Assembly (NCBI GenBank): GCA_038249055.1
Contig: JBBRWS010000001.1
Location: 14,244 to 78,243, forward strand
Direction: 5' to 3'
Origin: Minisyncoccia bacterium
GTDB taxonomy: Bacteria > Patescibacteriota > Minisyncoccia > Phycocordibacterales > UBA9973
Length of the DNA stretch: 64,000 nt
The notes beneath the pieces were generated by a model. The model ran no database searches and had not been told where the DNA came from. It saw only the letters and a program-made list of their open reading frames with translations. Shown one piece after another: positions 2,695 to 29,022 of this stretch (its first letter is position 1; the number at the start of each line of letters is the position of its first letter). The position numbers were made by a program, and so were the translations under genes.

Positions 2695-5694
2695 ATGAAA
2701 AATTACGATCATAAAAAAATTGAAAAAAAATGGCAAAAAGAATGGGATAAAAATGGAATCTATAAGACCGTTAATGGAAAAGGTAAAAAGATGTATGTTC
2801 TTGATATGTTTCCATATCCGTCTGGAGTGGGTCTTCATGTGGGACACCCTCGTGGTTATATAAGTAGTGATGTATATGCTCGTATGAAGAGTATGCAAGG
2901 CTATAATGTGCTTCACCCTATGGGATATGATGCGTTTGGTTTACCAGCTGAACAGTATGCATTGCAACATAAAATACATCCCAGAAAAGCCGTTTTAGAA
3001 AATGTTAAGACTTTTAAGAAACAGCTTTCTATTATAGGACTTTCTTATGATTGGTCTCGAGAAGTAAATACAACTGACCCCAAATATTATAAATGGACAC
3101 AATGGATATTTCTTCAAATTTATAATTCTTGGTATGACAAAACAAAAAATAAAGCACGACCTATAAAAGAGCTTGAAATTATTTTTGAAAAAAGTGGAAA
3201 TCTAAAAGTAAATGCTAGTTGTAGTTTTGATGTAAAATTTTTTTCAGCAAAGGTGTGGTCTAGTTTTTCAAAAAAAGATAAGCAAGATATTTTAATGAAA
3301 TATCGTCTTGCTTATGAAGGACACAGTGAAGTAAATTGGTGTGAAAAAATGGGCACAGTTTTGGCAAATGATGAAATAGTAAATGATGCAAAAGGAAATC
3401 CAGTTTCAGAAAGAGGAGGATTTCCTGTTGAAAAAAAAATAATGCGTCAATGGTTTATGAGGATTACTGCATATGCAGACAGGTTACTATCTGGTCTTGA
3501 GGGGTTAGATTGGAGTGATCATATAAAAGAAATTCAGAAAAATTGGATAGGGAAAAGTGAGGGTAGTGAATTAGAATTTAAGATTTCAATTTCTTCAGAG
3601 GTCCAACCTCCGAAGTCAGTTGAGGTTGGACCTCTGAAGGTATTCACAACTCGTGCCGATACTATTTTTGGTGCGACGTATGTAGTGCTTGCGCCGGAAC
3701 ATCCTTTGGTTAATACCTTAAAATCAAATATATTAAACCAAGAGGAAGTTATTAAATATATAAAGTTAATAAAAAATAAGACTGATGAAGATCGTACTAA
3801 AAATGATAAGGAAAAAACAGGCGTAGAATTAAGGGGGGTTATGGCTATTAATCCAGCCAATGGAAAAGAAGTACCAATTTGGATAGCTGATTATGTACTC
3901 GCTACTTATGGTACAGGTGCTGTTATGGCAGTGCCCGCGCATGATGAGCGAGATTTTGAATTTGCAAAAAAATACAATTTAAATATAAAGCAGTCAGTAA
4001 TGCCAGTTTATGGGAATAGTGTTAAAGGAGAGGAATATAGATATGCTGTCTCAGCTTTTGTTAAAAGACCATCAGATGGTAAATATTTATTTATTAAGGC
4101 AAAAGAATTTAATCAAATTTCAAAAGTTTATGGTGGAATAGAAGAAGGTGAAAATCCTGTACTAGCTGGAATTCGAGAAGTTTTTGAAGAAACTGGATAT
4201 AAAACAAAATCAGTTACAGATTTTGGATTTTCAATTCAATCACATTTTCACCATCCCCATAAAAAAGTAAACCGTAAATTGATTAGTGATTTAGTAGAGT
4301 TGGAATTAATAGATGAAGAACAATATGAGGTAGACGAAGAAGAAGCATTGCTACATGAAGTAGTGTGGCTTACTCTCGATCAAGCAAAGAAATTAATCAC
4401 AAATCCAAAAGAATTATATGATTTTGAAATACGTGAGGGAAAAAAGTGTTTTACTGATGATGGTGTTTTGTGTAATTCAGACAATTTTTCGGGAATCTCT
4501 TCAGAGGCTGCTCGCATGCAAATAACAGAATTTGTTGGTGGAAAAATAGTCACAAAATATAAAATGAGAGACGCAATATTTGCACGTCAAAGATATTGGG
4601 GTGAACCAATACCGTTAAGGCATAATCTTGATGGAACTATAACTGAATTTAAAGAAAAAGATTTACCCCTTGAATTACCAAATGTTAAATCTTATGTTTC
4701 TATCGGTACAGGTGAGTCGCCACTTGCAGGTGTAAAGTCATGGGTAAAAGAAGGTTTTGAAACAAACACAATGCCAGGATGGGCAGGTTCATCTTGGTAT
4801 TTTTTAAGATACATGGACCCACTAAATTCAAAACAATTTGCATCAAAAAAGGCTATTGAATATTGGAGAGAAGTTGATATGTATGTAGGTGGACAAGAAC
4901 ATGCAACTGGACATTTACTCTACTCACGTTTTTGGAATAATTTCTTGTTTGATTTAGGTTGTGTTCCATTTAAAGAGCCATTTAAAAGATTAAAAAATCA
5001 AGGTATGATTCTTGCTACGGATGGGCGTAAAATGAGTAAACGTTGGAATAATGTTATAAATCCAGATGATATTGTTAATAATTATGGAGCTGATACATTA
5101 CGCATATATGAAATGTTCATGGGGCCATTTGAACAAAGTTTACCTTGGTCAACTGACAGCATTATTGGCTCACGTAGATTTTTAGATCGTATATACAGAA
5201 TTCAGGAGAAAGTTACAAATACAAAAAGTATTTTAGGTGTAGAAAAAATTATTCATAAGACTCTTAAAAAAGTAAGTGAAGATATTGAAAATTTTGCTTT
5301 CAATACAGCAGTATCTTCTATGATGATTTTAGTAAATGAGATTGAAAAGAGTGAATTTATTGGAAAAAATGATTTTAAAATATTTTTACAGATGCTCGCT
5401 CCTTTTGCCCCTCATATTACAGAAGAACTATGGGGTAATATAGGGGAAAAGAAATCTATTCATAAAAGTTCATGGCCTAAATGGGATAAAAAGAAAATAA
5501 TAGACGATGTGATTAAAATCGCTGTTCAAGTTAATGGAAAAGTTCGTGCTGAAATAATAATATCAAAGGACATGACAGAAGAAGAAATAAAAGATGTATC
5601 TTTGAAAGACAAAAATATAGTAAATTGGATTTTAAATAAAGAAATAAAAAGAATTATTTATGTTCCAAATAGAATTGTAAATATTGTTGTCTAG
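2695..5694 (+). CDS. leuS: Leucyl-tRNA synthetase, unusually long (999 aa) with editing domain plus an embedded Nudix domain and a small palindromic insertion
   Basis: HVGH and KMSKR class I motifs, TTRADTIFGATY editing domain entry, AHDERDFEFAKKY. Confidence 0.95.
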   Translation: MKNYDHKKIEKKWQKEWDKNGIYKTVNGKGKKMYVLDMFPYPSGVGLHVGHPRGYISSDVYARMKSMQGYNVLHPMGYDAFGLPAEQYALQHKIHPRKAVLENVKTFKKQLSIIGLSYDWSREVNTTDPKYYKWTQWIFLQIYNSWYDKTKNKARPIKELEIIFEKSGNLKVNASCSFDVKFFSAKVWSSFSKKDKQDILMKYRLAYEGHSEVNWCEKMGTVLANDEIVNDAKGNPVSERGGFPVEKKIMRQWFMRITAYADRLLSGLEGLDWSDHIKEIQKNWIGKSEGSELEFKISISSEVQPPKSVEVGPLKVFTTRADTIFGATYVVLAPEHPLVNTLKSNILNQEEVIKYIKLIKNKTDEDRTKNDKEKTGVELRGVMAINPANGKEVPIWIADYVLATYGTGAVMAVPAHDERDFEFAKKYNLNIKQSVMPVYGNSVKGEEYRYAVSAFVKRPSDGKYLFIKAKEFNQISKVYGGIEEGENPVLAGIREVFEETGYKTKSVTDFGFSIQSHFHHPHKKVNRKLISDLVELELIDEEQYEVDEEEALLHEVVWLTLDQAKKLITNPKELYDFEIREGKKCFTDDGVLCNSDNFSGISSEAARMQITEFVGGKIVTKYKMRDAIFARQRYWGEPIPLRHNLDGTITEFKEKDLPLELPNVKSYVSIGTGESPLAGVKSWVKEGFETNTMPGWAGSSWYFLRYMDPLNSKQFASKKAIEYWREVDMYVGGQEHATGHLLYSRFWNNFLFDLGCVPFKEPFKRLKNQGMILATDGRKMSKRWNNVINPDDIVNNYGADTLRIYEMFMGPFEQSLPWSTDSIIGSRRFLDRIYRIQEKVTNTKSILGVEKIIHKTLKKVSEDIENFAFNTAVSSMMILVNEIEKSEFIGKNDFKIFLQMLAPFAPHITEELWGNIGEKKSIHKSSWPKWDKKKIIDDVIKIAVQVNGKVRAEIIISKDMTEEEIKDVSLKDKNIVNWILNKEIKRIIYVPNRIVNIVV
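3593..3639. repeat. Palindromic element family A, copy A2, inserted within leuS coding sequence (18-bp perfect arms cttcagaggtccaacctc / gaggttggacctctgaag)
   Basis: Perfect inverted repeat read directly; encodes EVQPPKSVEVGPLK in LeuS, which has no counterpart in E. coli LeuS at that position (about 10 residues longer than E. coli here). Confidence 0.75.
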
Positions 5695-5775
5695 TTATAT
5701 TAATTTTCATTGTGTATAATTACTCAATCTTATTCATTACTTATCAAAAAAAAATAATTTCTATCAAAATTAGCA

Positions 5776-7464
5776 ATGGTCAATCGAATTATTACATTTC
5801 TTAATAAAGAATTTCGGGGAGTAAATGAAGCCGCCTTATTGCTTGGCGGTTTTGCTTTCCTTTCTCAGTTACTTGGGCTTATTCGAGATAGAACACTTGC
5901 TCACATAGTTGGACCAGGTCCAATGTTAGATGTCTATTATGCCGCCTTTAGAATACCAGATTTTTTATATATATCTATAGCATCTCTTGCTTCTGTTACA
6001 GTTCTGATGCCATTTTTAGTAGATAAAATAAATAACAATAGCGATACTGCAGATAAAGCACGTTCATTTATAAATAATATTTTTAGCGCTTACATGATAT
6101 TTATGGTATCTGCCAGCATAATAATTGCTATATTTATGCCATATATAGTTTCTTATATGGTTCCTGGTTTTAATGAATATCAAATTAATTTACTTATTAC
6201 AACAAGTAGAATAATGCTATTATCTCCGATTTTTATTGGACTTTCAAATTTAATCGGTACAATAACTCAGCTATTTAGAAATTTTCTTATTTTCTCTTTA
6301 TCTCCAGTTTTTTATAATGTTGGAATTCTTTTTGGAATAATATTTCTTTATCCAAGGTTTGGTATTTATGGTTTAAGTATGGGAGTTATACTAGGAGCTT
6401 TGATGCATTTTCTTATTCAAGTTCCTGTTGTTATAAAACATAATTTCTTTCCTAAATTTATTTTAAAAATTAGATGGAAAGAAATACTTCACGTTGTAAA
6501 ATTATCAGCACCAAGAACGCTGACTCTTTCTTGTAATAGTTTAGCTTTCATTTTTCTCATTGCGATGGCTTCAACTCTTAAAGAGGGTTCTATCTCTTTA
6601 TTTACTTTTGCTTTTAATCTACAATCTGTTCCTGTTGGAATTATTGGAATTTCATATTCTGTCGCGGCTTTTCCAATCTTAGTTAAATCATTTTCCATGA
6701 AAGATATGGATAATTTTATAGATCAAATAATTTTTGCTGCTAGACAGATTATATTTTGGTCTTTACCAGTTATTACTCTTTTAATAGTGCTTCGTGCTCA
6801 GATTGTACGTGTTATACTTGGTTCCAATACTTTTTCTTGGGCCGATACTCGTTTAACTGCTGCATCAGTTGCTCTGTTTGTAATTTCTCTTGCATCTCAA
6901 GGACTTGTTTTATTATTTGTTCGAGGATATTATGCTGCAGGGAATACAAAAAAACCATTATTTATAAATGTTTTTTCATCTGTAATGGTTATTGTCTTTG
7001 CTCAATTGTTAATTTATATATTTAATAATTATCCTAATGTTCTCTTAAAATTAGAATTAATTTTAAGAGTTAAAGATGTTCCCGGAACCATAATGCTCGC
7101 ATTACCACTAGCTTATGCAACAGGTTCACTTTTGAATTTCTTTTTAATCTGGTTTTTATTTAAAAAAGACTTTCTACATAATAAAAAAATAAATTTATCT
7201 TTAACTTTTATTCAAAGTTTTGCAGGAGCAGTTGTTATGGGGTCAGTCGCATATCTTTCATTGGGATTTTTTGATAATATATTTAATTTAAATACAGGTT
7301 TAGGTATTTTCCTTCAAGGATTAATATCTGGAATTATGGGTATTGCTTCTGGGGTATTTGTTTTAATTCTGTTAAAAAGCAATGAATTATTTGGTATTAT
7401 TCATGCTCTTAGAAATAAATTTTGGAGAAACAGAGTTATTGCACCAGAACAGGCGGATTTATAA
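5776..7464 (+). CDS. murJ: Lipid II flippase MurJ (MviN)
   Basis: N-terminal LSQLLGLIRDRTLAHIVG..DVYYAAFRIPDFLY, 14-TM-like profile, 562 aa. Confidence 0.85.
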   Translation: MVNRIITFLNKEFRGVNEAALLLGGFAFLSQLLGLIRDRTLAHIVGPGPMLDVYYAAFRIPDFLYISIASLASVTVLMPFLVDKINNNSDTADKARSFINNIFSAYMIFMVSASIIIAIFMPYIVSYMVPGFNEYQINLLITTSRIMLLSPIFIGLSNLIGTITQLFRNFLIFSLSPVFYNVGILFGIIFLYPRFGIYGLSMGVILGALMHFLIQVPVVIKHNFFPKFILKIRWKEILHVVKLSAPRTLTLSCNSLAFIFLIAMASTLKEGSISLFTFAFNLQSVPVGIIGISYSVAAFPILVKSFSMKDMDNFIDQIIFAARQIIFWSLPVITLLIVLRAQIVRVILGSNTFSWADTRLTAASVALFVISLASQGLVLLFVRGYYAAGNTKKPLFINVFSSVMVIVFAQLLIYIFNNYPNVLLKLELILRVKDVPGTIMLALPLAYATGSLLNFFLIWFLFKKDFLHNKKINLSLTFIQSFAGAVVMGSVAYLSLGFFDNIFNLNTGLGIFLQGLISGIMGIASGVFVLILLKSNELFGIIHALRNKFWRNRVIAPEQADL

Positions 7465-21030: not shown

Positions 21031-21594
21031 ATGAGTAATCCATTAGAACTGTTAGAGGTGGTAGATGATAATGACAATGTCATAAGGATTGAGACAAAAG
21101 AAAAAATTCATGAAGATGAGTTGCTTCATCGTGATGTCCATATTTGGTTTATAACCCCTAATGGAGAAATGGTTTTTCAACATAGGTCAAAAAATAAAAA
21201 TCTATTACCAGATAAGTTGGATTCAACAGTTGCTGGTCACGTAGAATTAAATGATTCCTATGAAAAGACCGCGATTAAGGAGTGTAAAGAAGAGACTGGT
21301 ATAGATATAGATGTTAATAAACTTGTGTTTTTAATAAAAAAGAAAAAAAGTGCAGTCAATCATGTTAATGGAAAATCTCATAATACTATAGGCGTTTTGT
21401 ATGTGTATTTGTACGAAGGCAAAATAAGTGATTTAAAAGTAGAAAAAGATGACGGGGAAGGTTTTGAGCTTTGGAAGATTGATGAATTGCCTCATCTCTC
21501 TCTAGAAGATAAATCTAAATTTATTCCAGAAATTCTTTGTGAAGAAATGTTTATTCTTTTTAATAAAGCAAAAAATATTTTTAATATAAAATAA
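21031..21594 (+). CDS. Nudix hydrolase
   Basis: Nudix-box-like GHVELNDSYEKTAIKECKEETGI. Confidence 0.65.
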   Translation: MSNPLELLEVVDDNDNVIRIETKEKIHEDELLHRDVHIWFITPNGEMVFQHRSKNKNLLPDKLDSTVAGHVELNDSYEKTAIKECKEETGIDIDVNKLVFLIKKKKSAVNHVNGKSHNTIGVLYVYLYEGKISDLKVEKDDGEGFELWKIDELPHLSLEDKSKFIPEILCEEMFILFNKAKNIFNIK

Positions 21595-28945: not shown

Positions 28946-29022
28946 ACCTACTTGTAGAGGTCAAACCTCCGAAACCAATTAGCCCAGTAGGTGATTGTAC
29001 TCAATCAAGGTTGGACCTCTAA
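28946..29022. repeat. Palindromic element family A, copy A3 (~23-bp arms cctacttgtagaggtcaaacctc / gaggttggacctctaaaagtagg with ~38-nt centre)
   Basis: Inverted repeat read directly between mrdA and greA. Confidence 0.65.

Follow-up and report, generated by a model that had tools for sequence, protein, structure and literature searches.

A Nudix Domain Nested in the CP1 Editing Domain of Leucyl-tRNA Synthetase in a Minisyncoccia Bacterium and Its Relatives

Introduction

Few enzymes are as conserved as the aminoacyl-tRNA synthetases, and only a small, well-catalogued set of domains has been added to them in bacteria. Hydrolases that accompany synthetases include HINT with the lysyl enzyme (LysRS) and the trans-editing proteins AlaX, YbaK/ProX, and D-Tyr-tRNA deacylase; to our knowledge, none of these is nested in the CP1 editing domain and none has been reported as a polymorphic cassette. 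In this study, we explored the leucyl-tRNA synthetase (LeuRS) gene, leuS, of a Minisyncoccia bacterium (assembly GCA_038249055.1), within a window of 64,000 nucleotides (nt) of contig JBBRWS010000001.1 (positions 14,244-78,243, forward strand). An initial annotation of this window had proposed a Nudix hydrolase domain inside the synthetase at 4000-4440. This is indeed what we find: the peptides quoted in support lie where they were placed, and the insert amounts to approximately 147 amino acids (aa) relative to the Thermus thermophilus enzyme (1h3n). Literature searches, which did not cover subscription-only articles, yielded no description of a Nudix domain within LeuRS or within any synthetase of the Candidate Phyla Radiation (CPR); the one paper to name Nudix, synthetases, and CPR did so in unrelated contexts. 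The architecture is already visible in precomputed Pfam annotation, and hence unstudied rather than unseen. What is new is the nested arrangement itself, its spread across CPR bacteria and into DPANN archaea, its cassette dynamics within an essential gene and the placement of its relatives beside leuS; both components are of known kinds.

Results

The features of the gene, in window coordinates, are the following:

2695..5694, + strand: leuS, bacterial-type LeuRS of 999 aa, a single uninterrupted open reading frame (ORF), from phmmer, Pfam, and motifs
2836-2850, + strand: HIGH motif, here HVGHP, aa 48-52, by motif position
3538..3999, + strand: CP1 editing domain, N-terminal part, aa 282-435, with TTRADT, GTG, and AHDERD intact
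3937-3993, + strand: editing-domain motif peptide AHDERDFEFAKKYNLNIKQ, aa 415-433, quoted in the initial annotation
4000..4440, + strand: nested Nudix module, aa 436-582, replacing 1h3n residues 363-373 (net insert as above)
4036-4401, + strand: Pfam NUDIX match proper (PF00293), aa 448-569
4039-4041, + strand: R449, signature residue of the LeuRS-linked Nudix clade
4132..4200, + strand: Nudix box G480-Y502, GGIEEGENPVLAGIREVFEETGY, catalytic metal-binding helix motif, aa 480-502
4261..4275, + strand: family motif K523-x2-N526-R527, in the beta-hairpin following the Nudix helix
4342-4344, + strand: E550, signature residue of the same clade
4366-4368, + strand: W558, signature residue of the same clade
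4441..4554, + strand: CP1 editing domain, C-terminal part, aa 583-~620; the 1h3n alignment restarts at aa 583
4567-4614, + strand: peptide RDAIFARQRYWGEPIP, aa 625-640, the return to the catalytic body after the C-terminal part of CP1
5029-5043, + strand: KMSKS motif, here KMSKR, aa 779-783, by motif position

The window protein is a bacterial-type LeuRS, with both class I motifs, HIGH and KMSKS, and full-length homology to solved LeuRS. In phmmer searches against the PDB, it matched the T. thermophilus enzyme in four collinear segments (E 5.7e-183) and that of Escherichia coli (E 4e-156), whereas Pfam assigned tRNA-synt_1, tRNA-synt_1_2, the editing domain PF13603, and Anticodon_1. The editing model scores 202 bits, with aa 282-441 covering profile positions 1-146 of 185; here, about 20 residues after AHDERD, the insert interrupts it. 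The match to the editing domain is taken up again past the insert, where the end of the Aquifex editing domain (positions 145-192) aligns with aa ~564-615. Residues T318, T319, R320, D322, T323, G406, T407, G408, H416, D417, R419, and D420 are invariant in 52 of 52 aligned Nudix-bearing LeuRS; since the TTRxDT, GTG, and AHDxRD motifs are thus kept in all carriers, the Nudix domain is not a substitute for lost editing.

Judging from profile and structure model, the insert is almost certainly a genuine Nudix domain. PF00293 recognizes it with 37.8 bits within the entire LeuRS sequence and with 42.2 bits once excised, above the Pfam gathering score of 21.1, and the box GGIEEGENPVLAGIREVFEETGY, for which an exact match had been claimed, does read GX5EX7REUXEEXGU. 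An AlphaFold model of aa 436-584, computed with 30 homologous inserts, has a mean predicted local distance difference test (pLDDT) score of 91, a predicted template-modeling (pTM) score of 0.84 and the expected strand-helix-strand order, giving the alpha/beta/alpha sandwich of the Nudix fold. In the model of full-length LeuRS (pLDDT 84), the Nudix region reaches ~88-93 and would therefore be a separate domain within the synthetase. The fold is thus confidently predicted both alone and inside the full protein, and the segment is not some unrelated insertion domain specific to LeuRS. Two other origins were considered and rejected. An intein or homing element is not consistent with the excised segment, which yields NUDIX alone in Pfam (E<=1), without Hint or endonuclease, a single Nudix fold filling the insert. 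A frameshift or gene-fusion artifact is likewise at odds with the single ORF, the LeuRS sequence on both sides and more than 100 homologs from independent assemblies. By tblastn, no phage match to the insert was found; its GC content (0.30-0.34) equals that of the remainder of leuS, and the flanks hold no direct or inverted repeats of note.

Conservation was assessed in 226 related domains. G480, G481, E486, R494, E495, E498, E499, T500, G501, and Y502 are 85-99% conserved, and the signature residues recur in most copies (R449 in 205, K523 in 216, N526 in 205, R527 in 199, E550 in 201, and W558 in 214). Among copies at the window position within CP1 (hereafter site A), the strict Nudix box is intact in 133 of 152 (88%). 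The leuS DNA of the window was further compared with that of two relatives, P0002 and P0003, whose loci are syntenic with the window (a Sua5 homolog upstream; leuS, then MurJ and LepA). With the method of Nei and Gojobori, and at synonymous divergences (dS) of ~0.9-1.2, near saturation, the ratio of nonsynonymous to synonymous substitution (dN/dS) is 0.096-0.145 in the insert and 0.08-0.12 in the LeuRS body. This conservation makes it very probable that the Nudix domain is an active enzyme under selection.

The position of the insert among Nudix enzymes was examined with NCBIfam and PDB profiles. Over 30 family members, RppH variants are the models most frequently matched (26/30, best E 2.3e-12), followed by NudB and YtkD, with weak MutT and NudI matches as well; the window insert, at 19.5-21.3 bits, does not reach the cutoffs of the RppH/NudH equivalogs (PRK00714; 116-241 bits). 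PDB profile matches are led by 2azw and 3smd, then lupin Ap4A hydrolase, AvrM14, and Aquifex Ap4A hydrolase, and the best structural neighbors include AvrM14 and an oomycete Nudix effector, both decapping Nudix enzymes, as well as DIPP1, a diphosphoinositol-polyphosphate phosphohydrolase. A Tyr 16-18 residues after the Nudix box is said to mark hydrolases of diadenosine polyphosphates (Ap4A or, more generally, ApnA), and a Pro at +16 ADP-ribose pyrophosphatases. Across the 226 domains, F (157) and Y (58) predominate at +16, as do Y (107) and F (92) at +17. The ADP-ribose pyrophosphatase Pro is thus not a feature of the family, 215 of 226 copies having F or Y at +16; P521 of the window copy stands at +19 and is not conserved. 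The clade thus lies closest to the branch of RppH, ApnA hydrolases and decapping enzymes, yet forms a family of its own.

The same insert occurs in dozens of LeuRS, as the survey of relatives suggested in the initial annotation makes clear. Among the 120 best full-length homologs of the window LeuRS (56-87% identical; source names Paceibacterota and Patescibacteria), 63 carry PF00293, each ~1,000 aa or longer. In the Nudix-less relative P0014, a linker of 17 residues stands in place of the module. With the insert alone as query, a word-indexed search gave no relatives; exhaustive HMMER was needed to recover them, yielding 257 at E<=1e-3 from a set of 1.84 billion representatives. Of the best 150, phmmer with the two LeuRS halves identified the great majority as LeuRS or fragments of it. 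Species-representative genomes were scanned with the insert plus its flanks, the Nudix alignment itself being without a sufficiently conserved stretch. The nested architecture was observed in Moran-, Berkel-, Taylor-, Falkow-, Komeili-, Nomura-, and Magasanikbacteria and in Saccharibacteria; in Gracilibacteria loci, the nested Nudix appears as pieces split by UGA under table 11. A contig labeled Pacearchaeota (L002) encodes a bacterial-type LeuRS with nested Nudix, 1.7 kb downstream of an archaeal tRNA-splicing endonuclease, which suggests the transfer of CPR-type leuS into DPANN archaea. On this contig the endonuclease occupies 784-1293 and LeuRS 2990-5923; on a second contig with the same label (L072), an archaeal tRNA-splicing endonuclease (780-1358) is followed by a bacterial-type LeuRS without Nudix (3035-5518). 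The architecture is that of an old module and a widespread family across CPR, also present in some DPANN archaea.

The module behaves as a cassette. In a neighbor-joining tree of LeuRS (802 well-aligned body columns), site-A Nudix is present in all more distant clades, with presence and absence interleaved between sisters in the clade of the window. Nudix and body identity are poorly correlated over 1,326 pairs (r = 0.20). Near-identical synthetases may harbor very different modules, as in P0098/P0118 (body 95%, Nudix 30% identical), P0059/P0062 (90% and 31%) and P0005/P0009 (83% and 33%), and the reverse is seen in P0098/P0105 (73% and 79%). In the first pair, sliding identity is 97-100% over most of the protein, and no 30-residue window falls below 80% outside the cassette; across ~180 residues centered on the Nudix it is 13-57%, the divergence reaching 25-40 residues into the LeuRS flanks. 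The two contigs of this pair, L081 and L082, are syntenic, with 87-92% DNA identity, but contain ~580 nt within leuS that could not be aligned. Single-linkage clustering at 55% identity separates 22 Nudix types among 52 LeuRS, and among the 29 pairs whose bodies share 80% identity or more, 13 differ in type. An assembly chimera was considered as the source of these swaps and rejected: the L081/L082 flanks are 87-92% identical, not 100%, P0118 was found in two independent assemblies, and the 13 high-identity pairs are independent. Cassettes are thus exchanged between leuS genes, with frequent loss or multiplication; the simplest reading of the route would be homologous recombination between divergent leuS alleles via their conserved flanks. 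The window type (P0001-P0006), with Nudix identity of 75-93% versus 77-93% for the body, looks vertically inherited.

Free-standing relatives of the domain, labeled MutT-like by the Joint Genome Institute (JGI), also occur. Eight of them, of ~160 aa each, could be placed on contigs, and five directly adjoin leuS:

P0152: 2 nt upstream of leuS; the neighboring LeuRS, of 951 aa, itself has a nested Nudix
P0272: ~530-580 nt upstream of leuS; neighboring LeuRS without Nudix
P0270: upstream, overlapping the leuS start; neighboring LeuRS without Nudix
P0273: upstream of leuS, with one small ORF between; neighboring LeuRS without Nudix
P0127: 35 nt downstream of leuS; neighboring LeuRS of 965 aa, archaeal type

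P0127 is the closest free-standing relative of the window insert (45% identical). The LeuRS at its side matches that of Pyrococcus horikoshii (1wz2) over its full length (E 1e-201), and other neighbors on the contig look archaeal. The remaining four stand beside bacterial-type leuS and are mutually 60-82% identical; being related to each other, they count together with P0127 as at least two independent neighborhood associations, besides the nested form. The link of free-standing relatives to leuS is thus strong, although not universal.

Within LeuRS, the same Nudix clade is found at three sites, in one to three copies per protein: site A; site B, at the entry of the editing domain (around query aa 272-313); and site C, after query aa ~645-690. 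Pfam NUDIX stretches number three in P0121 and in P0122 and two in P0137; in P0168, a single Nudix stands at site B and the editing domain is uninterrupted. Other domains are nested in CPR LeuRS as well: Ham1/ITPase in P0185 (197 bits, before the anticodon domain) and P0097 (site B), a HAD phosphatase in P0132 (site C), ASCH in P0104, an alpha/beta-hydrolase in P0080, and a DUF559 endonuclease-like domain at site B of P0028. In CPR, LeuRS loops seem to receive hydrolase domains quite generally, as a landing pad. In P0028, moreover, the peptide VLPFGEDLGGV occurs three times (VLPFGEDLGEV in the first copy), always with a PKG-containing stretch beside it (PKGKG in two copies, PKGRE in the other). 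The three copies stand apart from one another in LeuRS, one flanking the DUF559 insert, and probably reflect a repeated DNA element lying in frame. Two irregular cases were also noticed: in P0193 (388 aa), the end of a LeuRS editing domain and a Nudix follow an unrelated N-terminus, and contig L030, which may be palindromic or duplicated, has LeuRS-Nudix ORFs on both strands.

The window leuS has a repeat of its own. A perfect palindrome with 17-nt arms, TTCAGAGGTCCAACCTC-(11 nt)-GAGGTTGGACCTCTGAA, lies in frame at window 3594-3638 and encodes SSEVQPPKSVEVGPLK at the editing-domain entry (site B). Two similar hairpins are located at 119-159 and 28955-29021, outside every ORF of at least 110 aa, and the palindrome arm has 7 matches versus 0.27 expected. 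The SSEVQPPKSVEVGPLK peptide is kept in P0002 and P0009; in other relatives a different short peptide takes its place, and P0014 is without one. The palindrome looks like a repeat of the repetitive extragenic palindrome or miniature inverted-repeat transposable element (REP/MITE) kind, able to reside within coding sequence. Upstream of leuS, at 944-1507 on the minus strand, a 187-aa ORF begins with a membrane-like N-terminus and is acidic and highly repetitive (DVEGIQEDVEGIEKDVDEIQKDVDEIQ... repeats) over its C-terminal half; on the P0002 contig, a 166-aa minus-strand gene with a weak DUF1003 match lies between the Sua5 homolog and leuS. The stand-alone Nudix gene (21031-21594, +) listed in the initial annotation is confirmed by a Pfam NUDIX score of 45.3 bits; it belongs to another subfamily, with weak NCBIfam matches to YfcD and type-1 isopentenyl diphosphate (IPP) isomerase-like models, far under their cutoffs; it is absent among the relatives found with the LeuRS insert.

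Discussion

The window LeuRS contains a complete, independently folding Nudix pyrophosphohydrolase in a surface loop of its CP1 editing domain, most likely catalytically active. We suggest that it acts as a tethered but autonomous enzyme, without a tight, co-evolving interface with LeuRS; a specific interface or allostery is not expected, because near-identical LeuRS bodies accept modules that are 30% identical. Its chemistry would be separate from the tRNA deacylation of the editing site, itself intact, and would serve to remove nucleotide species linked to LeuRS activity. Synthetases make Ap3A and Ap4A when ATP or ADP attacks the aminoacyl-adenylate. ApnA (Ap3A/Ap4A) would thus be the leading candidate, and the conserved basic residues would suit adenylate-derived polyphosphates of this kind; as the actual substrate, ApnA is a guess, possible but doubtful. 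Both activities put forward in the initial annotation, hydrolysis of Ap4A or of aminoacyl-adenylate, would be compatible with the present data. A function specifically coupled to LeuRS seems moderately probable, and we lean, with much reserve, toward the overall reading of an autonomous active pyrophosphohydrolase functionally coupled to LeuRS.

Several observations weigh against this reading. LeuRS is not known as an outstanding producer of Ap4A among synthetases, and a diffusible substrate needs no obvious tether, so that ApnA leaves the partnership with LeuRS unexplained. The window copy has F518-H519 at +16/+17, not Tyr, and at ~20 bits the insert falls far under every curated NCBIfam Nudix cutoff (103-241 bits). 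Three of the eight free-standing relatives are not leuS neighbors, and no family member was found within 4 kb of the ~45 Nudix-less leuS loci among L036-L080. The other hydrolase inserts (Ham1, HAD, ASCH, and alpha/beta-hydrolase) fit a generic scaffold as well as a LeuRS-specific model. Finally, many lineages can dispense with the module, as 57 of the 120 closest LeuRS lack it (820-905 aa, except P0028, which has 1,043 aa with its DUF559-type insert) and the box is degenerate in ~12% of the copies at site A.

The alternatives differ mostly in what ties the enzyme to LeuRS. It might be a generic nucleotide house-cleaning or salvage enzyme for which LeuRS is a permissive, constitutively expressed scaffold in streamlined CPR genomes, its substrates being oxidized or deaminated nucleoside triphosphates (NTPs) or modified nucleotides from scavenged RNA, unrelated to leucylation. 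The presence of Ham1/ITPase, HAD, ASCH, and alpha/beta-hydrolase in other CPR LeuRS loops, usually together with Nudix, fits well, as does the tolerance of near-identical bodies for very different modules, with no specific interface, and the weak MutT/NudI matches and JGI label point the same way. Yet such a scaffold explains neither why the same Nudix clade recurs at three LeuRS sites nor why free-standing members stand beside both bacterial- and archaeal-type leuS; moreover, the signature R449, K523, N526, R527, E550, and W558 is unlike MutT, and no MutT cutoff is approached. We consider this account unlikely, if worth keeping in view. A closer tie is imagined if the domain were a LeuRS-specific guard, hydrolyzing an adenylate bound by LeuRS or directed at it, either a noncognate aminoacyl-AMP such as norvalyl-AMP, as a third, pre-transfer proofreading route, or a natural toxin mimicking leucyl-adenylate; an arms race around an essential translation enzyme would then have left its footprint in the 22 or more cassette types, their repeated loss and regain, and the exchange between CPR and DPANN. 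Presence/absence polymorphism and lateral replacement of types do resemble resistance or defense genes, the insert sits only ~20 residues past the AHDERD editing motif, and the tie to LeuRS is kept whether the domain is nested, upstream, or downstream, and with both LeuRS types. The variation, however, is in the surface and not in the pocket, the conserved substrate-facing residues being the same in all cassette types, and the editing site, intact in all carriers, leaves nothing obvious to compensate. We know of no Nudix enzyme that cleaves acyl-adenylates or phosphoramidate adenylate mimics, and regard the guard as improbable.

An RNA substrate would be expected if the domain were an RppH-like 5'-end pyrophosphohydrolase or decapping enzyme delivered by LeuRS to tRNA-Leu or translating RNA. 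RppH and YtkD models are those most often matched in NCBIfam, AvrM14, the oomycete effector, and DIPP1 are among the best structural neighbors, and the basic R449, K523, and R527 would suit polyphosphate or RNA. Since scores lie far under the RppH cutoffs and nothing connects mRNA decay with LeuRS, we give this possibility little weight; mature tRNA also has a 5' monophosphate after RNase P. The initial annotation had raised the option of a selfish in-frame insertion, that is, a selfish or neutral passenger spreading by recombination through conserved leuS flanks and tolerated without benefit. The patchy distribution among close relatives, cassette replacement with breakpoints in conserved flanks, the multiple copies and sites and the other site-B insertions (the DUF559 endonuclease-like domain and the in-frame palindromic repeat) would all be expected of it. 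A passenger would not, however, be held at a dN/dS of ~0.10, equal to that of the essential LeuRS body, nor keep catalytic and family residues over CPR-wide divergence; the insert is without Hint/intein or homing-endonuclease signature or phage match, and free-standing homologs are kept as separate genes beside leuS. Selection and catalytic conservation thus disfavor that option, which we hold to be very unlikely. Least credible of all is a catalytically dead structural or RNA-binding Nudix fold, like the MutY C-terminal domain or mitoribosomal L46: the degenerate boxes of some site-A copies speak for it, but the full catalytic box is retained in the window copy and in 88% of those at site A. 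Known binding-only Nudix folds have lost the box.

Overall, selection equal to that on LeuRS, lateral cassette exchange and free-standing relatives beside both types of leuS point to an unrecognized partnership between Nudix enzymes and leucylation. In a whole superphylum of host-dependent bacteria of ultra-small size, and in some DPANN archaea, the proofreading domain of LeuRS thus harbors an apparently intact pyrophosphohydrolase, which may have a role in controlling Ap4A or other adenylate by-products, in an extra quality-control step, or in LeuRS protection. More generally, essential CPR genes as landing pads for enzymatic domains and repeats bear on annotation and on genome streamlining.

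Compared with the solved LeuRS of T. thermophilus (1H3N/2BYT) and E. coli (4AQ7), the window enzyme is alike in its motifs, its anticodon-binding and C-terminal domains and over its full length. In the place of the 11-residue Thermus loop (residues 363-373), it has the 147-aa Nudix module. It also has ~60 aa more at aa 145-204 (nt 3127-3306; pLDDT 84-95) and is without the leucine-specific domain, query 775-779 (around nt 5017-5031) corresponding to Thermus 580-637; both the extra segment and the absence of that domain are conserved among CPR LeuRS homologs. The Nudix module, in turn, shares fold and catalytic box with RppH/NudH, T. thermophilus Ndx1, Mycobacterium tuberculosis Rv2985, and the lupin and Aquifex Ap4A hydrolases. 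RppH and the Ap4A hydrolases are the characterized enzymes most often matched by profile and structure, and an aromatic residue 16-17 positions after the box is found in the clade; yet those enzymes are free-standing, whereas the LeuRS clade is nested and has its own signature (R449, HK-x2-NR, E550, and W558) and an N-terminal extension. The structural-genomics proteins 2azw (Enterococcus faecalis MutT/nudix) and 3smd (Bacillus thuringiensis), 17-23% identical, are free-standing as well and uninformative on substrate. With inteins and other in-frame mobile insertions, the module shares its in-frame place within a conserved essential gene, its patchy occurrence and its lateral replacement via conserved flanks; unlike inteins, it has no Hint domain, splicing residues or homing endonuclease, is retained in the mature protein and is under purifying selection as an enzyme. 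In concept, it is like HINT, AlaX, YbaK/ProX, and D-Tyr-tRNA deacylase, small hydrolases coupled genetically or physically to synthetases in both fused and free-standing forms. These have other folds, however, and act on aminoacyl esters or acyl-adenylates, not on the pyrophosphate bonds that are cleaved by Nudix enzymes.

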